Shown: positions 6,929-40,410 of the stretch, piece after piece
How the letters are laid out: each line of letters begins with the position of its first letter
Position numbering within the stretch: the stretch's first letter is position 1
From: a virus
Taxonomy: Duplodnaviria > Caudoviricetes
Length of the DNA: 56,875 bases
IMG/VR virus record: IMGVR_UViG_3300023076_000003
Coordinates: 1 to 56,875 of that record
Direction: 5' to 3' (one strand)
Notes under the pieces: generated by a model
What the model was told of the DNA's origin: nothing
Databases searched by the model: none
What the model saw: the letters and a program-made list of their open reading frames with translations, nothing else
Position numbers and translations under genes: made by a program

Positions 6929-8170
6929 CTATGCTGGGTCGTCACCCACACCCCTCAGTGTTTTCAAATGTGCCTGCATTCCCAAAACCAGCTTTGATGC
7001 GTATTGTTCGTTTGGAAGAACCGTCGCGTCTGGAACAATCCACACCCTGGGCCGTCTGGAACGCGTCACATCGCCTAACGGTCCTTGGAAGTTCACCCCC
7101 TTAAAACCGCAGTCACCAACGCTGTTTGCAATGATTTGGCCAAACTTTTGCGCCACATGGTCGGCCATAAACCAGCTACTCAAACGGAAAATCAAACGAC
7201 CCGAGTCCTCCAAAATATCCGCCTTCTTCAGCCACGCCGCGTATTCCCCAAAGCCAAGGCTACCTTCGAGTTTCTGCCTTACCTCCTGCCACTCCTCCCC
7301 CTGGACGGGAACACTTGCCACGGCTGAATGCTGGAGAGGACCCACGCCCACCACAGGCTGGGGGGGACTCTCCAAAGCAGGCGCCGATGGCGTTCCCTGC
7401 TCCAGGAGAAGCAATGAAGTAGGATTAGATCTTTTTTCTCCCCCTTCAGGGGAAAAAAGATCAATCCTTATATATGACAAGGGCGGACAATTTGTCCGGG
7501 GTTTTGTCCGGGGTTTGTCCTGGGTTTTGTCCGGGGTGTCGGAGGGGATATCCTCGGTTTCAATATCCTCATTTTTGTCCGCTGTATCCTCTCGGGGAGT
7601 TGGATTTTTTGGCTCTAAACCACAGTCTTGGCGTACTTTTTCAAGCATTTCTTTTACGTATTCTGCGGGTATACTCCGCCCGCTAGCAGCCCATCTTTCA
7701 AGCTCTGGGAGCAAAAAGGCGGACAAAACAGCGGCCATTTTTTCAGATAAAGTGCTCGTCATGAAAGGGTTATTTTTGTGAGGATTATCAACGTGTTCCT
7801 GAATATTTATGTCCTGGGTTTTGTCCTGGGTTTTGTCCGGGGTATGAGCCCCTATTTCATCCGCTTCTTTGACCCTGTACATAGAGCACGAACCCGATGA
7901 TAGACGGATATCAATAAAATCATGATCCTGCAGCTTTTTTAAGATGCGTCTTAGATTTCTTTCAGTCATACCCGTTCTACGAGCCAACCAAGCTTGCGTT
8001 ACCTGCAGCCAACGTTTGCCATCATCATCAACTATAATATCGTCTTTCAAATTGGGGCATGCATATAAATAAAATCTAAAACTCTTAAGAAGAGTAACAC
8101 CGCTTGAACCACACGTTTTCCTAGGGGATCGTTGATAATTTAAAGATTTTTTATATGATTTTATTGGCAT
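6929..8170 (-). CDS. Replication initiator (N-terminal wHTH, internal iterons, C-terminal DnaA domain I-like)
   Basis: TQAWLARRTGMTERNLRRILKKLQDHDFI HTH; WQEVRQKLEGSLG..EYAAWL...SWFMADHVAQKF; iterons inside the gene. Confidence 0.8.
   Translation of the reverse strand: MPIKSYKKSLNYQRSPRKTCGSSGVTLLKSFRFYLYACPNLKDDIIVDDDGKRWLQVTQAWLARRTGMTERNLRRILKKLQDHDFIDIRLSSGSCSMYRVKEADEIGAHTPDKTQDKTQDINIQEHVDNPHKNNPFMTSTLSEKMAAVLSAFLLPELERWAASGRSIPAEYVKEMLEKVRQDCGLEPKNPTPREDTADKNEDIETEDIPSDTPDKTQDKPRTKPRTNCPPLSYIRIDLFSPEGGEKRSNPTSLLLLEQGTPSAPALESPPQPVVGVGPLQHSAVASVPVQGEEWQEVRQKLEGSLGFGEYAAWLKKADILEDSGRLIFRLSSWFMADHVAQKFGQIIANSVGDCGFKGVNFQGPLGDVTRSRRPRVWIVPDATVLPNEQYASKLVLGMQAHLKTLRGVGDDPA
7428..7540. repeat. 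Replication origin: palindrome plus iteron cluster 1
   Basis: GATCTTTTTTCTCCCC-TTCA-GGGGAAAAAAGATC hairpin, AT-rich spacer, then about four TTTGTCC(G/T)GGG repeats. Confidence 0.7.
7809..7843. repeat. Iteron cluster 2
   Basis: Three tandem 12-bp (TTT)TGTCC(T/G)GGG units encoding PDKTQDKTQD. Confidence 0.7.
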
Positions 8171-31617: not shown

Positions 31618-32538
31618 TTATAAAGTTGTAATGCCGGTACCAGAGCCAACAACGGCGCGGTACGTCCAGCAAATAAATGAATAACGCTCAAAGGCGCGAC
31701 CATTCATGGTGTTGCTCACAATATCCGTGTCATAGCCAATCTTGAGCTTTTGCTTACGGAAGTGAATAAAGCCTTGTGGCTGGTCGGTGGTCATGAAGTA
31801 ACGGTTATCGTAGGCCAAGAAGTTGTTTGTACGATATCCACCAGGCAAGAAGTTGTTGTACTGAATGGCGTTAATAGCGTTGTTGCCAGTTTCAGCCTGG
31901 AACTTGGAATTAAGAAGACGCGAAGCCTGGAACTCAAGCTTAATTGGGACCAACAAGAACTTAGGGTTAATGTCGATCTTCAAGTTGCTTGGGCTTTCCC
32001 AACTACGAATCATCGTAATCATGTCTTCCAGAGCCGCTTCATTCATCTGGAACCCGGTGTTAAACGTGTTAGCGTTTGTACCTTGATCAAGAGGGTGATT
32101 CAGCGAGCACATCGGCTGGCCGTCGGCTAAAGTCGATCGAGCGTTGAAAGCGTTGTTAAACAAGAACATAGCGTTTTTGTTTTTGCTCTGATCGAGAGAG
32201 GCACGCAACATCGCACTATCACGGGGCCATTCGGACGTATACAAGTTGTCGTCGATAAGTTCAAGCGACATTGTAAAATAAATGGCGTACGTAAGGTTGA
32301 CGGCACGTGTTTCAAAACGCTGACCACCCGCACTTTGGAAGGCTGGAGCCGCTTCCGGCTTTTCCTCTGCTTCCCGCAAGCCTGCAAATTCCGATAGGAA
32401 CTCTGTAGCCTGGTTCGATTCTCTGGTTTCAAAGATATCGTTAAATTGATGGTCAAATACGTTGTAGTTTACTAAGACACCGCTGAGGTAATCTAATAGC
32501 AAAGATTCCGCGTCTGCGCGGACCATAACTCCTGACAT
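31618..32538 (-). CDS. Major capsid protein (Mu gpT-like HK97 fold)
   Basis: IFE..ES..A.E, TYA..F..S.E.IDDNLY, N.AF.....ADG...CS..HP, P..LLVP..L.F.A..LL.S, ERYSF...W. Confidence 0.85.
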   Translation of the reverse strand: MSGVMVRADAESLLLDYLSGVLVNYNVFDHQFNDIFETRESNQATEFLSEFAGLREAEEKPEAAPAFQSAGGQRFETRAVNLTYAIYFTMSLELIDDNLYTSEWPRDSAMLRASLDQSKNKNAMFLFNNAFNARSTLADGQPMCSLNHPLDQGTNANTFNTGFQMNEAALEDMITMIRSWESPSNLKIDINPKFLLVPIKLEFQASRLLNSKFQAETGNNAINAIQYNNFLPGGYRTNNFLAYDNRYFMTTDQPQGFIHFRKQKLKIGYDTDIVSNTMNGRAFERYSFICWTYRAVVGSGTGITTL

Positions 32539-33351
32539 TTAAGCTGCATTTCCTTTCGTAACAAAGGGCGAATTGGTATTTGCAACCAAAACACTTGTAT
32601 ATGGGACTGCTGGGGCAGCGTTTCCACCCACAGTAAATTCTTGAGGCTCATTATTAGGAGCAATATCGTAAATCAAAAATCCAGACCCAGTTCGCGATAG
32701 ACCCCCGCCTGATGGATTTGAGGTGTCAAGATAAGCCATGCTCCTACCCGTGGCATTATTTCCTTGTATAAAAGGAGCCTGTATAAGAGCAGGGTTAGCG
32801 GGATTAAGAAACCAATTAAAGTTAGCTGCATATGCTAGACCAAGGTTTGCGGCGTTTGCCCCTGTTGTACTTGTTTGAATCTGCCAAGTAGCCGCTGGGT
32901 CGTTATAGATCATAACGCGAGCATCCGCCGCACCTGCTGTTACCATGCCTCCTGGCCACATATTTGTACCCGTTGCCGACAAGTTAATAGCTCGAACTGA
33001 AGCGGGTGCTGAGTAACAAACACCTTTAAATATTCCGTAAACAGGTATGTTTTGCGCTACATTTATTGCATCTGCGGACGTAGGCAATGTATTAACCGGA
33101 CCCGCACGCCTATAAGCCGCCAAGGCTATAAACTCTGCCAATGAGTGTATATAACCATCAGGTTGATAGAGCCAGTTATTCCCGTCATAATTATAGCTTC
33201 CTAAAATAACGGGGTCGCCTTGATAAATTGGGTATTGGTAGCCAGATTTAATGCGTGGATAAGGTCCTGCTAGCTGGCCTGAGGGCTGTGCTTGCGAGTA
33301 GTTGCCTACGGGATAAAATCCATAGGCCGTTTGTAATGACGGTGACGCCAT
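32539..33351 (-). CDS. Capsid-associated (decoration/cement-like) protein
   Basis: YGF.PV...I.SGY...IY.GDPV...G.F.GV.Y...DP...QIQ pattern, immediately upstream of MCP. Confidence 0.6.
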   Translation of the reverse strand: MASPSLQTAYGFYPVGNYSQAQPSGQLAGPYPRIKSGYQYPIYQGDPVILGSYNYDGNNWLYQPDGYIHSLAEFIALAAYRRAGPVNTLPTSADAINVAQNIPVYGIFKGVCYSAPASVRAINLSATGTNMWPGGMVTAGAADARVMIYNDPAATWQIQTSTTGANAANLGLAYAANFNWFLNPANPALIQAPFIQGNNATGRSMAYLDTSNPSGGGLSRTGSGFLIYDIAPNNEPQEFTVGGNAAPAVPYTSVLVANTNSPFVTKGNAA

Positions 33352-33577
33352 AAATAAAGTCCTCCTAAGGTTTAAAACAAACTCAAAACAATAAATTGTG
33401 ATGGGTACGCTTAAAAGCGATCCGCAGCGGTATCACGGCTAGCTGCGAATGAGAAGGGAGGACATAGCGGAGCTACGAAGATATGAGGGGGTTCTCAAGT
33501 GCCTCAGTCTTTTTGAGAATGGGTACACAGATGAAATCTGCGAAGCGTGCCAAATATTCTCGGATTTGGCGGCCTTT
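33352..33577 (-). ncRNA. Six-hairpin structured leader of the capsid operon
   Basis: Six consecutive stems between the promoter and the AGGAGG RBS. Confidence 0.6.
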
Positions 33578-33582
33578 TTATT

Positions 33583-33611
33583 ATGTTAGGACGGGGTTAT
33601 TTAGTTGTCAA
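33583..33611 (-). promoter_or_regulatory. Sigma70 promoter for capsid genes
   Basis: TTGACA-17-TAACAT. Confidence 0.7.
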
Positions 33612-33617
33612 CAAATA

Positions 33618-34082
33618 CTAAATACCTTTAAAACGCCTGTGATACTCTGCATAAGCCTCGTCTGACATACCCTTTGTCTGGATCGTTTTCTTCAAGAACT
33701 TCATAGAGGCGACGTTCTTTGTTTCGTACCCTTGCTGCTCCATTTCGTGGATATCACGACGACGCTTCATAAGGATCTGACCACCTCGGGTCACTAAGCC
33801 CTCTGTATCGTCTTTGCGGCTAAAAGGAGAGCGGAAGTTAGACATGTATTGCTCTTCATACTCTTCTTGGGTAACTGCGCCCCAATACTTTTGGCATTCC
33901 TCAACGTAGGTATCCCTACATTCAAAACCATTGGACCTAAAAGCCATAAAGGCATAGACCCAGTCGCGGTTTTTCATTAAAAACGCCATCGGCAAGTTAA
34001 AGCGCGATTGGTTAAAGACTGCTGGATTGACGCGATCTGACTCGATGAGTTGATCAGAGTCGGCGGGTCGTACTCGTGACAT
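33618..34082 (-). CDS. Phage head-module protein
   Basis: G.V.RGG.ILMK motif; between scaffold and capsid genes. Confidence 0.65.
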   Translation of the reverse strand: MSRVRPADSDQLIESDRVNPAVFNQSRFNLPMAFLMKNRDWVYAFMAFRSNGFECRDTYVEECQKYWGAVTQEEYEEQYMSNFRSPFSRKDDTEGLVTRGGQILMKRRRDIHEMEQQGYETKNVASMKFLKKTIQTKGMSDEAYAEYHRRFKGI

Positions 34083-35224: not shown

Positions 35225-35641
35225 TTAAATCCCTTTCAAAAAATACGGATAGTTCTCAGGGGGGATCACTGCAAAGGCGCGGTTGTCGTTAAGGTAGTAG
35301 CACATGTGGCCCATGATGTCTTTTCGGCTTGCATCGTAGGCGTTAAAGTCTATCCAATCACCTTCCTGCACCCAGTCAACGGAGCCGTTATAATGAGGAC
35401 CTTTGTAAGAATCGGGGCCTACTTTAATAACTTTTCCAACGTCTGCATGACGGGCTGTTGCTTCGCGTGTCTGCTCTGAAAGCTCAAAACCGTTTTCAGT
35501 TTTAGTTGCGGTTACGGGGGCCCTTATGAGCAACCTGTAACCTCCTCGCATAATCTGACGCCGCATGACGGTTTCAAGTTCGTCCACAAACGCTTGAATG
35601 TCTTTATGTGCGGTTGCAACTCCAAAATCTTTTTGTTTCAT
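35225..35641 (-). CDS. groES: GroES-like co-chaperonin
   Basis: GYRLLIR...KT..G..L....G.VIKVGPD.Y...W..EGDW..F...LND Cpn10 pattern. Confidence 0.8.
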   Translation of the reverse strand: MKQKDFGVATAHKDIQAFVDELETVMRRQIMRGGYRLLIRAPVTATKTENGFELSEQTREATARHADVGKVIKVGPDSYKGPHYNGSVDWVQEGDWIDFNAYDASRKDIMGHMCYYLNDNRAFAVIPPENYPYFLKGI

Positions 35642-35880
35642 GCTGCTGGGCTTTCGGGCTCAACATGATCTGCTGGGTCAATGCCTTGATCTAACAAGCT
35701 ACTTTCATAGTTAGCTAACAAAATAGGTGCGTCTTTAGCTAAAGCTTCATATGCTTGAGCCATGCCAGCGCATACACATGAGCGTGGCGTTTCTAGGCCT
35801 GTTTTGAGAAGGCCGATTTGTTCATTATGCCTATGTACAGCATACTCTTGAATTACTTTTGCAAATCCTTTTAAAGACAT
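35638..35880 (-). CDS. Hypothetical head-module protein
   Basis: Coupled to groES. Confidence 0.65.
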   Translation of the reverse strand: MSLKGFAKVIQEYAVHRHNEQIGLLKTGLETPRSCVCAGMAQAYEALAKDAPILLANYESSLLDQGIDPADHVEPESPAA

Positions 35881-35997
35881 ATCATCCTCTTATAAAACGC
35901 TAAATTAGCCTTGATATAAGGAGGATGACATGGATCTTTAAATTAACTGAGTAACTTTTGGCCATTTACCCAAAAGTTCAAAAAGTTACATCTCTAG

Positions 35998-36189
35998 CTA
36001 CTTGTATTGGTCTCTTCGGATCTTCGCAACGCCTCCAGCAGCTAGCTTTTGCTTGGCTTGGGCATAGCTCATTTCAGGCGGCATCTTTGTATGTTCGCCT
36101 GGGTGCTTTTTGCACATACCGCCCTTTTTGAAACCTTCAGCAGGCGGTACGGGCCCACCGGCCATTTTCTTTACGGGTGTTTTTTTCAT
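35998..36189 (-). CDS. Small basic protein with three xxGG motifs
   Basis: KMAGG, FKKGG, LAAGG; ATGA overlap with portal. Confidence 0.65.
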   Translation of the reverse strand: MKKTPVKKMAGGPVPPAEGFKKGGMCKKHPGEHTKMPPEMSYAQAKQKLAAGGVAKIRRDQYK

Positions 36190-38693
36190 TTGGTTTTCTC
36201 TCCCTTGGGTTGTTTTAACGTGGTTTCCTGAGGCTGGCTAGCCCTATCTAGCTTGTCGAGCTCTCTCGATATATGGTCTCTTTCTTTGGCCATCGTATCC
36301 ATTTCGAGCTTTTGAGCGGCTATCTGAAGCTTCAGCATATCTATATCGTGTCTCATTTCAAGATCTTTTTCTTTATATATATATTCTTGCTCCCACTTCT
36401 CACGCTCCCCATGTATTTTCAAAAGCTCCGTTTCATTTTTCATGGCAGCGATTTCGCCTTGCATCTTGACCTCTTCCATAGCAACTAAGGCAGGATCAAT
36501 AGGAGCAGGTGGGTTGTTAGAAGGAGCCTGTTGTTCTTGCATAACCTTTTGAGCTAATAGCATAGCAATCTGGTTTTGCATCTCAGGCGTAATCTGGGAC
36601 GGGTCTTCAGGGACGGGCATGCCTACATAGGTAAACATCTCAATCATCACCTGCAAAGCTTTTCGAGCCTGAATTTGTGCTAGCACATTCGGCCATATTT
36701 GTTGCTGCGTTTGGTCATCTAAAAGTGTTTGTAAAACGGTTACGTAAGCAGGTTGGTCTTGCCAAACATAAGCTTTAACAGGCTCCCCTTGCATGAGGGC
36801 TGCCATTTCACTTGCAGGGTCTCTAGCTGGAGGTGGAGGAGGTGGAGGTGCTTCTTGTGGCTGAGGAACAAAGGCTTGTATCTGCTCATCGGGAATGTTG
36901 GCGCACTTGTAGTAATACGTTAGAACGGCAGGCATATTGTGATATTCGGGCATGGACTGAGCTGTTGTAAGCAGCATTTGAGCCCGTAACAAGCGATACG
37001 CTGAGTTATGTGTGGATGGATCGCCTGCAGGAACTAAACGTATGTGGCCTGCAAAGTCTTCACGTGACACCCAATAATTACCGTTGGCCACTTTGAATTC
37101 GTACATTTGACCAGGTCGCAGCCAGTCGTGCCACCTTTGACGGAATAACTCCAGCTCATGTGAAAAGGAATCATAAGCCTTTTGTAGAATGGCGTTCGGA
37201 AGCTTTTGTCTTCCCTCAATCAAAGCAAGACTGGTCGCCACAGGAGCGTTAGGGCTCATATCAATAAAGCTAGGGTTCAGCGCGCCTGCAGGCCTTTGTA
37301 TAGAGTCTTCTAAGTCTTTTTTGAGGTTGTACATGGATTGATCGGGGCCCTTAAACGGGACCTCCATAATACTATCCCGTATGCTGTTACCGACGGCTGG
37401 AATGGGTATACCAGTACCAGGGGCCATACGTATGTTGTTAGCGTCTAAGCTAATGCCTTGCTGATAAAAAAAGGCTGGAAAGTTAGCGTATAGTGCGGCA
37501 TCCATAATCTGACGTGTCACAAGGGTGGCCGCCCTAGCTTGGTTACCTGCCCAGTGAGCTAAGCCGTAGCCAGCTCCTTTAAACGCCGGCATACAGCCAT
37601 ACCAAGCAAACCATTCTGTTTCTTTATGCTTGGGGTCATCCTCAGCCCAATTGCGATAGATGCCATTAATAACCCCGCTGTTTCGATTGATGGTTACGCG
37701 GTAAGGGGAAACGATACCGTCGGGCTTACTTAACGGGTCTTCTTCGAAATAGCGGAAAAGGTGGCTTTCTGCCATACAAATCAGGTCGCGTTCGTCTTCA
37801 TCGTCCTCACGTTCAACACCTCGCAAGTAGTCCAAAGTGTTTTCGAGGTCATCCCCTTCATAGGTAGATGAGTTGGTGGTAAGAGGAATACGGTCATGTG
37901 ATATGTAGTAGCCATCACGTGTGCGTAGCTTGAACTCATACGCGGTGATGTATTCTAAGTGGGTTTTCCGCATGCTTCCGTAAGGGCTGGAAAAGTCCCT
38001 ATGGATAGCAAAGTTTTGAATGGGGATCTTAAGTTTTACAACAAGATCCCTAATAGGGTCCTCATAAATCTTGGCGTACGCATCACCGCACGTCATGGCC
38101 CACATAATAGTTGTTTCGGATTCGGCCCTATACTCTGGCAACTCATAGGTGAAGTACTGGTTGGCAAACTGTTTTACGTGCTCGGATCGGTCCATGTATT
38201 CCGTCTGAGGCTCGCCCCACAAAGCGGTATCAACAAGGTTTCCACGGCCAAACAAAAAGGAGCTTATATTAAGCGTAAGCTCTAAAACAGTTTCCAAAAG
38301 GGCTACGGATGTAACGCCTGAGGCATGTTTAAAAGCCGCCCCTTCCGTTGGGCCCTGGTTGGTTAGCTCTAATCCAATTTGATTGATCGTTTCCGTAACG
38401 GCGCTTATGTAAGGCTCTTGGCTCTTAAAGTCTTCATCTATATCATCTTTAAGCTTCAATCCCAGCTCTCGAAGCGCGTGCGGGGAGAACAAAGGGGCGA
38501 TGTTGTCATAAAACCCCCCGTTTTGATACTTAAGGGGAACCGCTGCGGGAAAGGCCGCCTCATCCATAAGAACGGCTGAATCGTCTGGAAAAACCTTCAG
38601 CATGCCGCCTTGTAGGTTATGGTTTTCAAGTTCTGGCGGTGTAAGCACCCCCCCTCCTGGGGGGGCATCGGGAAAGAGATTGAAGTTTTGCAT
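36186..38693 (-). CDS. Portal protein
   Basis: 835 aa after TerL; PY.VTI...SG...GIYRNW.EDDP, F..Y...P...G.GYGL.H, APV.T.LAL.E, DP..E..A...G.P.KA...QD..A. Confidence 0.85.
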   Translation of the reverse strand: MQNFNLFPDAPPGGGVLTPPELENHNLQGGMLKVFPDDSAVLMDEAAFPAAVPLKYQNGGFYDNIAPLFSPHALRELGLKLKDDIDEDFKSQEPYISAVTETINQIGLELTNQGPTEGAAFKHASGVTSVALLETVLELTLNISSFLFGRGNLVDTALWGEPQTEYMDRSEHVKQFANQYFTYELPEYRAESETTIMWAMTCGDAYAKIYEDPIRDLVVKLKIPIQNFAIHRDFSSPYGSMRKTHLEYITAYEFKLRTRDGYYISHDRIPLTTNSSTYEGDDLENTLDYLRGVEREDDEDERDLICMAESHLFRYFEEDPLSKPDGIVSPYRVTINRNSGVINGIYRNWAEDDPKHKETEWFAWYGCMPAFKGAGYGLAHWAGNQARAATLVTRQIMDAALYANFPAFFYQQGISLDANNIRMAPGTGIPIPAVGNSIRDSIMEVPFKGPDQSMYNLKKDLEDSIQRPAGALNPSFIDMSPNAPVATSLALIEGRQKLPNAILQKAYDSFSHELELFRQRWHDWLRPGQMYEFKVANGNYWVSREDFAGHIRLVPAGDPSTHNSAYRLLRAQMLLTTAQSMPEYHNMPAVLTYYYKCANIPDEQIQAFVPQPQEAPPPPPPPARDPASEMAALMQGEPVKAYVWQDQPAYVTVLQTLLDDQTQQQIWPNVLAQIQARKALQVMIEMFTYVGMPVPEDPSQITPEMQNQIAMLLAQKVMQEQQAPSNNPPAPIDPALVAMEEVKMQGEIAAMKNETELLKIHGEREKWEQEYIYKEKDLEMRHDIDMLKLQIAAQKLEMDTMAKERDHISRELDKLDRASQPQETTLKQPKGEKTK

Positions 38694-38715: not shown

Positions 38716-40359
38716 TTAATAGTATGGCTCAATGCTATGCTCCTTATAAGAATCACGACGCTCGGGTGTTTCCTCTTTCATAGTTAACCAACCTGCATCA
38801 CGCAGCCTTATAAAGGCCTGGCTCATGCTGTCCATAGTATCACTTGATGTAGAACGGGGCGACGGATTGGGAAATAAAGAAGCGCATTCTAAAAAGAACT
38901 CAGAAAAATCCGTTAAATACTTGTGATGTGGACCCTTTGTAGGAAGCCATACACGGCCGTTTTCGATAAAGTGGGACACCTGAAGACAGCGTCCTATCTT
39001 ATCCCCGTAACGACTGGGGTTAAACTTCATAATGGGAATACCTGTTAACCCAAAGTCACGCAGCAAAAGGTGTCCTGTTGATTTTTCCTCGATCAACAAA
39101 AGGTCCACAGGACGCCTCATACGTTCGGGCATGGGATCGTTAAACTTAACGTCTTGGTAGTTAACGGCCATTCGTTTAACCATTTTGCGCAAATCAGGGT
39201 AATCAAGCTGATCGTAAAACACACTCAAAAGCATGAGGTTCGGTATGCCGTATTCATCATGAAAGACACCCCAAGTGGTTGCTGATGAATAAGAAGAGTC
39301 GGGCGTGCCAATCATAGCCGTGTCCCAACTGAGAAGGATATGTTTAAAGCGCGGCATCTGCTCCTGGGTCCAATGCTTAAACCAGTGCTCCTTTATGCGA
39401 CCTCCGCCATCCGGTGAAGGTCTCTGTTGAAGCTGTCCCGCTATCAAAGAAGCTTGGCCGTTAAAGTCGTCACGCTTAAGCTTTTCTAGTGCATGGCGTG
39501 GGAACTGTTCGGGCCATAATAGCTCACCTTCTTTTGATCTCGGGTCAATCCATTCCTTCCCGTTACAGGACGGAAGCACAACCGTTTTGGCTCGTCGCGC
39601 CATCTCAAACTCCATGGGCATACATAGATGCGTCCAATCCGAACCCAGAGAGAGGATGTACCCCGACAAGTCCCCTGTGTGTCCACGCTGTTGAACGACA
39701 AGACGGCGCCTATCCAACAAAGAACCAAAGCGGGTGGACATAATACCTTTCCACCAGTTAATAACATTTAATCGTGAAGCCGCACTATAAATGTCCTTCA
39801 TGTTGTTTGGGTCATCGCATAATAAGAACTCACCACCCGAACCAGTGTTGGCCGAATCAACGGACGTTGCGGCCCGAAAGCCCCACTTATCGTTTTCAAA
39901 CTTCTTTAGGTTCTTAACGTCCCGTCGCAACTTAAACTTAGTGCCCCACAGCCTTTGATACCATTCAGACTCAATAAGTCGGCGGCACTTCATGCTGTCA
40001 CGTTGGGCCAAGTCCAAGGCATAAGACGGACACAAAAAGCGATACTCTGGGTGTTGCGTCCATACCCAGGCTGGGTAGGCTACCGATATAAGGCTACTTT
40101 TACCCGTGCGGGGGGGAACGTTAATCAACAGATCACAGATATCACGGCGGTATAAAGCCTCTAGATGCTCACATAAAGCTTCTAAGTGCCAACCGCCAAC
40201 AAAGGACACGCCCTCTATCTGTTCCCAAGCATAGGTAAAAAACGTGTAGAGTGATTGCTCGCATTCTTCTTTAACCTGAAGCTCTTCCTCTGTAAGAGGA
40301 ACAAGCTGTATGGAAGACATTTTAATAATCTTCGACATACGGTTTAGATGAATGTTCAA
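38716..40359 (-). CDS. terL: Terminase large subunit
   Basis: LLINVPPRTGKS Walker A, LLCDDP Walker B, QQR, LQQRP, SWDTA, IEEK nuclease motifs; start may be 40320-40338. Confidence 0.95.
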   Translation of the reverse strand: MNIHLNRMSKIIKMSSIQLVPLTEEELQVKEECEQSLYTFFTYAWEQIEGVSFVGGWHLEALCEHLEALYRRDICDLLINVPPRTGKSSLISVAYPAWVWTQHPEYRFLCPSYALDLAQRDSMKCRRLIESEWYQRLWGTKFKLRRDVKNLKKFENDKWGFRAATSVDSANTGSGGEFLLCDDPNNMKDIYSAASRLNVINWWKGIMSTRFGSLLDRRRLVVQQRGHTGDLSGYILSLGSDWTHLCMPMEFEMARRAKTVVLPSCNGKEWIDPRSKEGELLWPEQFPRHALEKLKRDDFNGQASLIAGQLQQRPSPDGGGRIKEHWFKHWTQEQMPRFKHILLSWDTAMIGTPDSSYSSATTWGVFHDEYGIPNLMLLSVFYDQLDYPDLRKMVKRMAVNYQDVKFNDPMPERMRRPVDLLLIEEKSTGHLLLRDFGLTGIPIMKFNPSRYGDKIGRCLQVSHFIENGRVWLPTKGPHHKYLTDFSEFFLECASLFPNPSPRSTSSDTMDSMSQAFIRLRDAGWLTMKEETPERRDSYKEHSIEPYY

Positions 40360-40410
40360 TCTTCCATCCTGTTACCTAACTAATAAAGCATGTTGGACAT
40401 ACAATGGGGG

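Follow-up and report, generated by a model that had tools for sequence, protein, structure and literature searches.

We analysed a complete virus record from IMG/VR (IMGVR_UViG_3300023076_000003; Duplodnaviria, Caudoviricetes), whose 56,875 nucleotides (nt) are referred to here as the window, and describe a 266-nt gap at 33352-33617 that lies on the minus strand ahead of two capsid genes, one encoding a decoration-like protein of 270 amino acids (aa) and the next the major capsid protein (MCP). Our reading, to which we give a probability of roughly one half, is that the gap is a cis-acting unit in which a promoter is followed by an RNA leader that masks the decoration-like and MCP genes' ribosome-binding site. 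The promoter-plus-leader unit for the capsid genes is real and probably functional, one case of a leader that occurs throughout the clade and has no description in Rfam, and the role of the leader is most likely translational control by masking of the ribosome-binding site, possibly together with stabilisation of the messenger RNA (mRNA). The evidence from this phage itself consists of architecture and prediction and is not yet comparative; we infer that the promoter is active, that function resides on the minus strand, that the site is masked and that the mask is relieved.

A preliminary description of this DNA, made from its letters and a list of its open reading frames (ORFs), had reported about 225 nt of non-coding leader in a packed operon, preceded by a TTGACA-17-TAACAT promoter, and both turned out to be there. 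The gap is the largest non-coding stretch of the structural module (11653-40359). The sigma-70-like promoter lies on the minus strand at 33611-33583 (-35 hexamer at 33611-33606, -10 hexamer at 33588-33583; 10 of 12 positions match), and the stop codon of the upstream gene, which encodes 154 aa, ends 6 nt before the -35 hexamer. Transcription is predicted to start near 33577-33575, leaving approximately 225-231 nt to the AUG at 33351. Across the genome, 15 distinct sites match at 10 or more of 12 positions, and six of these, including the leader promoter, fall in the non-coding 8.5% of the sequence; all six precede a gene in their own orientation, which in one case is the terminase gene. This placement supports use of the host sigma-70 polymerase and makes the leader promoter credible; it is plausible, as judged from sequence, that the putative promoter drives the capsid genes. 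On the minus strand between 33457 and 33365, no sigma-70-like site was found at thresholds of at least 9 or at least 10 of 12, in a scan that does not recognise phage-specific late promoter types. Candidate genes within the gap were rejected: minus-strand ORFs of 26 and 29 aa come without a Shine-Dalgarno sequence, a plus-strand ORF of 46 aa would be cut before its stop codon by a plus-strand terminator-like site, and ARAGORN finds no remnant of a transfer RNA (tRNA) or transfer-messenger RNA.

Folding was scored on the minus strand unless stated otherwise, with 33577-33322 as the putative transcript. This transcript has a predicted folding energy of -70.3 kcal/mol, corresponding to z = -3.7 against dinucleotide shuffles, and the 266-nt gap alone gives z = -2.3, with 5 of 200 shuffles folding as well. 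In 36 segments taken every 800 nt along the structural module (mean z of -0.5 +/- 1.4), z was -3.5 or lower in only two, this gap (-3.9) and a gap near 35.9 kilobases (kb; -4.0). Together with the long leaders and covarying stems found in relatives, these values support the earlier proposal of a structured RNA leader ahead of the capsid genes and behind a plausible promoter.

Six stems had been proposed in the leader. Each folds as a hairpin at the coordinates then given, although the energies are weak (-2.5 to -8.0 kcal/mol), and in the whole-leader ensemble five of them form at pair probabilities of 0.5-1.0 whereas the one at 33492-33519 stays at about 0. From the 5' end, H1 (33549-33570; GCCAAAU/AUUUGGC with an 8-nt loop; -6.2 kcal/mol; pair probabilities of 0.91-0.97) begins 6-8 nt after the predicted start. 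It is followed by S1 (33526-33542; CGCAGAU/AUCUGUG with loop UUC, then UACCCAUUCUCA; -5.7 kcal/mol; 0.76-1.0) and by H2 (33492-33519; UUCUCAA/UUGAGAA with a 14-nt loop; -4.0 kcal/mol when folded alone), which in the folding model is the weakest of the six. Downstream of these are S2 (33463-33477; CGUAGC/GCUAUG with loop UCC; -4.2 kcal/mol; 0.87-0.99 for five of six pairs), H3, also called P3 (33420-33450; AUUCGCAGC/GCUGCGGAU with a 13-nt loop; 0.98-1.0 for its core of 6 base pairs (bp)), and S3 (33408-33419; CGCU/AGCG with loop UUUA, then UACCCAUCACAAUUUAUUG; -2.5 kcal/mol; 0.52-0.61). H3 has 9 bp, the minimum-free-energy structure and a hairpin test having extended the 6-bp stem of the preliminary description by 3 bp on each side. 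The plus strand folds about equally (z = -3.3). Because S1 contains a G-U pair, it reaches -5.7 kcal/mol on the minus strand and only -2.9 kcal/mol on the plus strand; S2 falls from -4.2 to -1.5 kcal/mol. The G-U pairs of S1 and S2 thus favour the minus strand.

The leader contains an anti-Shine-Dalgarno word, GUCCUCC (33463-33457), whose every base is complementary to GGAGGAC in the ribosome-binding site. The Shine-Dalgarno sequence AGGAGG, with the AC that completes this match (33359-33366, minus strand, read from the sequence), stands 9 nt before the AUG and after a U-rich linker. In the predicted leader ensemble the GUCCUCC:GGAGGAC helix pairs with a probability of 0.94-1.0 and the GGAGG core of the Shine-Dalgarno sequence is fully paired; the helix keeps a probability of at least 0.93 in seven of nine transcript contexts. 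Taken alone, the GUCCUCC word is not distinctive. The case for masking in this phage draws instead on four further lines: masking helices are conserved in two subgroups of relatives (A and S); the complementary words vary by group and track the flank of each group's own Shine-Dalgarno sequence (GUCCUCC:GGAGGAC here, UACUCCU:AGGAGUA in the relative L033, AUUCUC:GAGAAU in subgroup A); in the related phage MW202675, CUCCU of a short leader forms a local hairpin with GGGAG; and in this operon's second gap a hairpin encloses both the Shine-Dalgarno sequence and the AUG of the gene that follows.

The closest proteins to the 270-aa protein (P0002 and P0003, 61-62% identical) and to the MCP (P0037, 65%) are encoded on contigs that were not found in the viral, metagenome or genome contig collections scanned. 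Scans of viral, metagenome and genome contigs with the 270-aa, 154-aa and MCP proteins, as single sequences or alignments, likewise yielded no DNA of close relatives, and neither blastn with the region nor tblastn with the 270-aa protein matched a cultured phage. Near-identical contigs are present in four leaf-litter metagenome DNA runs and show no differences from the window inside the leader, and therefore offer no variation for testing. No RNA run was found among the listed sequencing runs that contain the phage (four listed, all leaf-litter DNA). The comparison was therefore made with distant relatives: an MCP alignment retrieved 80 IMG/VR loci, and searches with hidden Markov models (HMMs) placed the gene before the MCP gene (the pre-MCP gene) in 42 loci, eight annotated phages included; 39 of these had a callable upstream ORF of 50 aa or more. 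Among the IMG/VR relatives with a called upstream ORF, 24 of 31 have at least 186 nt of non-coding sequence before the pre-MCP gene, the five longest stretches (491-973 nt) having been checked for non-coding status on the gene strand only. Merging identical sequences left 19 distinct long leaders. Of the remaining seven loci, L041, L063, L064 and L065 have 26-63 nt, the short values of L034 and L036 are artefacts of a 51-aa ORF called inside a leader near-identical to that of L039, and L035 reflects a truncated gene call.

The long leaders of relatives fall in part into subgroups with structures of their own. Subgroup A (L038, L040, L042, L043 and L054; approximately 210 nt) has a 43-pair consensus in which six pairs show compensatory changes. 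Three hairpins lie inside a closing stem, and further helices cover the Shine-Dalgarno region (CAUUCUC:GAGAAUG) and the start codon (CAUGY:RCAUG). A TGTTGAC(A/T) element resembling a -35 hexamer is conserved, and all five leaders show TTGACA or TTGACT 200-250 nt before the AUG. Subgroup S (L029, L032, L033, L037 and the group of L039, L034 and L036) has in common, in order, CUCCUCC or UUCCUCC at a distance of approximately 100 nt from the downstream AUG, then a hairpin, then GAAGCG...GCG(U/A)AC, and finally UAGGAG after an AU-rich linker, and RNAalifold predicts a CUCCU:AGGAG helix in five of five sequences. In alignment A9, which includes this phage's misaligned row and three weak hits, none of 500 shuffles reached the observed covariation on four of five measures. 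In the relatives-only alignment A11, the five measures were reached by 1, 22, 8, 233 and 3 of 500 shuffles; here the P3 register is off by one column for L034, L036 and L039, an error that depresses the covariation statistics, and a control slid by +1 scores about as high. Because of the register errors in both alignments, we gave more weight to an alignment-free test that compares the longest uninterrupted hairpin within 55 nt starting inside UCCUCC with shuffles. Four of five relatives have a hairpin of 9-11 bp at this position (p = 0.004-0.028), with arm sequences that all differ; the hairpin of L032 has only 5 bp (p = 0.8). The combined Fisher p value is 3.2e-5 for the relatives and 2.7e-6 when the leader of this phage is included.

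The leader studied here resembles those of subgroup S in the order of its elements. UCCUCC begins 111 nt ahead of the AUG (the range in five relatives is 96-110 nt) and is followed by the uninterrupted 9-bp hairpin (p = 0.007 against shuffles), by CGCUUUUAAGCG-UAC, by the U-rich linker and by AGGAGG. The position of S3 is occupied in relatives by a CGC...GCG mini-hairpin with UAC or AAC after it. The length class is also alike, at 266 nt here and 230-274 nt in L032, L033, L037 and L039. The leaders differ in that approximately 6 nt separate the anti-Shine-Dalgarno word from the hairpin here, whereas the two overlap in the relatives, and in that this leader has a longer linker and, as judged by eye, one extra unit of a large and a small hairpin at its 5' end. 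The link between this leader and those of relatives is positional and architectural, not demonstrated homology. Multiple alignments by MAFFT of this leader with subgroup S misplace H3 and S3, and RNAalifold predicts no pairs on alignment A8; the 58.8-bit score of the leader in covariance model R1 arises by construction, because R1 was trained with its misaligned row.

The first gene downstream of the leader (32539-33351, minus strand) starts at the conserved MA... N terminus of its family, and the MCP gene (31618-32538, minus strand; Pfam Mu-like gpT and PHROG major head protein) begins immediately after its stop codon. The MCP matches annotated major capsid proteins in tblastn at 25-33% identity. 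Neither Pfam nor PHROG offers a match for the 270-aa protein, but its family comprises 33 cluster representatives at E <= 0.001 that are always encoded directly upstream of the MCP gene, and it includes gp39 of Pelagibacter phage HTVC023P (profile match 99.7%), the product of the gene preceding that phage's MCP gene. An AlphaFold model built from a 34-sequence alignment has a predicted local distance difference test (pLDDT) score of 88.5; an earlier model from three sequences (pLDDT 30.7) was unusable. The eight best structural matches of the model are all chains of phage capsid reconstructions, at modest Z scores of 4.4-6.6, and include an entry for the capsid-stabilising protein of phage TW1 and the capsids of Pam3, Sf11 and XM1. 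A Foldseek search of the PDB returned nothing at E <= 0.001. Since its best structural matches are phage capsid chains, we call the protein decoration- or cement-like, and the model suggests that it is probably a capsid decoration or cement protein. The model resembles small proteins of this kind, with the addition of an inserted helical segment.

Several observations weigh against masking by a conserved structured leader. When stability is regressed on G+C content, the absolute stability of the leader is ordinary or below average (z of +0.2 to +1.3). The sense strand is C-rich and G-poor (56 C against 34 G in 33400-33577), and the average stability therefore comes from an unfavourable composition. 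Small hairpins number 10, against 9.9 +/- 2.8 in shuffles, and the best internal sequence repeat is 16, against 16.2 +/- 2.3, a value equalled by 117 of 200 shuffles. In two contexts extended far upstream, used as stand-ins for read-through, the pairing of GUCCUCC drops to 0.11-0.24, with the Shine-Dalgarno core remaining paired in both. The longest-complement test gives p = 0.094 for this leader, and across the 13 of 22 leaders on which it was run p ranges from 0.022 to 1.0, with p <= 0.05 in one (L033, 0.022). The 270-aa gene ranks only 8th of 48 genes for occlusion of its Shine-Dalgarno sequence, and 36% of dinucleotide-shuffled leaders leave that sequence unpaired at a probability of 0.05 or less (17% at 0.01 or less), so occlusion at this level is expected from composition alone in 17-36% of cases. 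The six sequences of subgroup B yielded a single conserved hairpin, and a helix over the ribosome-binding site was absent from their consensus. Seven of the eight annotated marine and freshwater relatives have 6, 14, 17, 19, 22, 53 and 82 nt at the junction, which shows that the gene pair can do without the leader. A covariance model trained on subgroup-S relatives only (R2) did not find the leader at E <= 10 with default filters; with filters off it gave 11 hits, none of which was this leader, and the region alone scored 5.4 bits. The nhmmer searches were negative both ways, with the relatives' profile on the leader and with the leader on the relatives. This non-detection is unsurprising because the MCPs are only about 40% identical.

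The occlusion expected from composition and the structure of subgroup B would also fit a leader that merely stabilises or processes the mRNA, through protection by H1 against 5'-end-dependent decay or through marks for RNase cleavage, in which case the anti-Shine-Dalgarno match would be coincidental. The position of H1 just inside the predicted transcript and its high pair probabilities point the same way, but that closeness to the 5' end rests on the predicted start, and the masking helix is conserved with covariation in subgroup A and predicted throughout subgroup S. We consider this explanation unlikely.

We hold a protein-binding riboregulator to be similarly doubtful. Here a phage protein (decoration, MCP, scaffold or the 154-aa protein) would use the UCG-hairpin-YG-UAC units as its operators, and the effect would be autoregulation of the capsid genes or an RNA polymerase that resists termination. 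The preliminary description had noted that the small hairpins have UCG...(Y)G-U(A/C)C flanks in common, which is the case in three hairpins. Three hairpins with different stems and common flanks, whatever the flank pattern, are modestly unusual (14 of 2,000 shuffles; 35 of 852 genome windows), and the pattern TCG-stem-(Y)G-T[AC]C occurs three times within 135 nt of the leader and at four other distinct sites in 113.7 kb, both strands counted. The claim of internal repetition holds to this extent, whereas repetition of sequence as such is at chance. By eye, several relatives have a small hairpin followed by YG-UAC, seen as UG-UAC or UG-CAC, as well as a near-invariant GAAGCG...GCGUAC and similar loop sequences (GGAAUUG, CGAAAUUG). 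Set against these points, no candidate RNA-binding protein was identified, and the hairpin motif is absent from the equivalent junction of the eight annotated relatives, where the one hit in 68,690 nt lies elsewhere. Over IMG/VR, the pattern of units 1 and 2 gave 19 single hits, none with a matching hairpin or repeat. A wider family or mobile element built on the hairpin pattern was accordingly rejected: the IMG/VR hits look like chance, and one that was inspected is antisense within an ORF. The comparison with Rfam that had been suggested matched no family in the region 33250-33720: at E <= 10 the only hit was SSRC38, at 15 bits against a threshold of 80. All 4,227 models of Rfam 15 run on the whole window identified only a tRNA-Trp, and 19 loci of relatives (149,733 nt) had no match. 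Protein binding, capsid autoregulation, antitermination and a virion-associated RNA are not supported; masking of the Shine-Dalgarno sequence, joined in one subgroup by masking of the start codon, is the single function to which the comparison with relatives points.

A largely non-functional spacer is quite improbable. On this account the gap would be a fast-evolving junction with a promoter, maybe an insertion scar, and its hairpins would be incidental. Its absolute stability and hairpin number are indeed at background, the leader cannot be aligned to those of relatives by covariance model or HMM, most annotated relatives manage with the short junctions listed above, and MW202675 (L006) has an insert at the same site. 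The composition-corrected stability of the gap, however, is extreme for the genome, long leaders persist in most relatives and are conserved and covarying within subgroups, and the order of elements is common to this leader and those of relatives. The MW202675 insert (1740-2882, approximately 1.1 kb) contains small annotated ORFs, a tRNA-Met (2629-2705) and a terminator-like hairpin, followed by a promoter-like TTGACA-17-CATTAT and an approximately 100-nt leader in which CUCCU is paired with the GGGAG where ribosomes would bind; this junction looks like an insertion hotspot. In phage 023Pt_psg01 (L005), a hairpin of 10 bp without mismatches (GUAUUUGGCU/AGCCAAAUAC) lies in the 82-nt gap (2684-2765), immediately ahead of the ribosome-binding site. 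Its arms resemble those of H1 in opposite order; this may be coincidence.

Finally, a plus-strand antisense small RNA running from within the 5' end of the 270-aa gene to the hairpin at 33548-33571 and its T-run, and pairing with the capsid mRNA over its leader and start codon, is very improbable: the plus strand has a terminator-like site overlapping H1 (8-pair stem, then GCCTTTTTAT), promoter-like sites at 33163-33191 (10 of 12) and 33292-33319 (9 of 12) and the folding score given above, but the stem of this terminator has little stability (-6.7 kcal/mol), the counts of terminator-like and promoter-like sites over an 11-kb stretch are 14 and 13 against 12.0 +/- 2.9 and 15.0 +/- 3.8 in shuffles, the G-U pairs of S1, S2 and H3 turn into A-C mismatches on the plus strand, the conserved helices of relatives include sense-strand G-U pairs, and in relatives sense-strand terminator-like hairpins with T-runs precede the promoter (the terminator scan picked up only that of L037).

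Among known systems, the T4 gene soc encodes a capsid decoration protein. In the T4 genes e, soc, 49 and I-TevI, as set out in a review, the Shine-Dalgarno sequence and/or the AUG lies in an RNA helix and 30S binding is reduced; a late promoter lies inside the DNA of the 5' arm, and late transcripts without that arm are hence translated (PMC3014915). By analogy, these inhibitory structures in initiation regions are the closest documented mechanism for the masking proposed here. The likeness lies in a predicted helix with an upstream leader over the Shine-Dalgarno sequence of a late gene and in the 270-aa gene, which like soc apparently encodes a decoration protein. The leader differs in that the sole promoter-like site is upstream of both arms, in that the arms are approximately 90 nt apart and do not form a local hairpin, and in that it holds about five further hairpins. 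With the only promoter-like site upstream of both arms, every transcript would therefore carry the mask. Other structured leaders are also similar in part. The HK022 put, Bacillus EAR and lambda nut elements are structured RNAs located shortly after a promoter or within a long operon; the placement is alike, which we treat as a lead only, and S3 with its 3' flank may resemble boxA-like sequences. Here, in contrast, no Rfam model matches at threshold and terminator-like sites are not enriched downstream. 5'-terminal hairpins stabilise mRNAs, as in the 5' untranslated region of Escherichia coli ompA and in the phage T7 gene 10 leader. This leader has in common with these a hairpin near the predicted 5' end, an AU-rich tract and a strong Shine-Dalgarno sequence, but H1 would begin 6-8 nt from that end, and the leader is much longer and contains an anti-Shine-Dalgarno word. 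Phage Mu has a late promoter before the head genes I and T, the latter encoding its MCP, and the phage studied here similarly has a putative internal promoter within the morphogenesis region, directly ahead of its capsid genes, and an MCP that matches the Mu gpT family. Mu late promoters depend on the activator C and not on a sigma-70 consensus, whereas the promoter here is sigma-70-like. We know of no long structured leader at the Mu late head promoter.

The gap lies in a structural module that runs from 40359 to 11653 (29 kb), is tightly packed and has all its genes on the minus strand. Upstream of the gap are genes identified by Pfam and PHROG for the large terminase (38716-40359), the portal (36186-38693) and a GroES-like protein (35225-35641), followed by a 379-aa gene and by the 154-aa gene (33618-34082; from the ORF list, function not assigned). 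A gene of 137-173 aa stands at the position of the latter in all eight annotated relatives, and the order GroES, approximately 300 aa, approximately 155 aa, approximately 200 aa and MCP is annotated likewise in eight phages, three of which are HTVC023P, Planktothrix phage Pag-Yong1 and Roseobacter phage CRP-902. The second-largest gap of the module (35881-35997, minus strand) folds at -40.1 kcal/mol (z = -5.8; none of 200 shuffles is as stable) into a 9-bp hairpin followed by a long hairpin that pairs CAUGUCAUCCUC with GAGGAUGAUAUG. Within the long hairpin lie the Shine-Dalgarno sequence and the start codon of an 80-aa gene (35638-35880) just upstream of the GroES-like gene; of the 80-aa gene it is predicted that it has the most occluded Shine-Dalgarno sequence of the 48 genes. 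The best promoter match of the genome (TTGAAA-17-TATAAT, 11 of 12) is at 40582-40554 and precedes the terminase gene by approximately 190 nt, which means that the head operon, too, starts with a long leader (40360-40594), from which the hairpin motif of the capsid leader is absent. The tRNA-Trp (anticodon CCA; 44257-44333, minus strand) is the sole tRNA and sole Rfam match of the genome. The strongest folding outliers after correction for G+C content, on both strands, are 7301-7500 (z of -4.7 and -4.9) and 2301-2500 (z of -3.1 and -3.7). The former, inside a 413-aa ORF, contains an inverted repeat of 14 nt (7428-7441/7449-7462; 93% complementary) and the latter a perfect one of 12 nt (2320-2331/2344-2355).

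If the leader masks the ribosome-binding site, host RNA polymerase would start near 33576, and the nascent leader of about 225 nt, hairpin-rich and C-rich, would fold the local hairpins H1, S1, S2, H3 and S3. GUCCUCC would then pair with GGAGGAC, closing a domain of approximately 90 nt and lowering access of the ribosome. Output of the 270-aa protein and the MCP, which we take to be the two most abundant head proteins, would be set post-transcriptionally through the opening of this helix, for which temperature, processing, the kinetics of folding or a factor acting in trans would all be possible causes. The hairpins, and the 5'-proximal one in particular, may also protect the mRNA from decay. 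A bolder proposal is that the leader belongs to a fast-evolving and undescribed class of multi-hairpin riboregulators that gate translation of decoration and MCP genes in a clade of uncultivated soil and freshwater phages, with the mask opened by a specific trans-acting signal. A candidate for this signal would be a head-assembly protein that binds the conserved loops and GAAGCG...GCGUAC and so couples capsid synthesis to procapsid assembly. We regard this as a long shot.

How the amounts and timing of capsid proteins are set post-transcriptionally is little known outside T4 and a few other model phages. If confirmed, promoter-linked leaders of this kind would represent a new class of cis-regulatory RNA for phage late genes, and the combination of promoter and leader would serve as an annotation marker for the capsid transcription unit in this clade.

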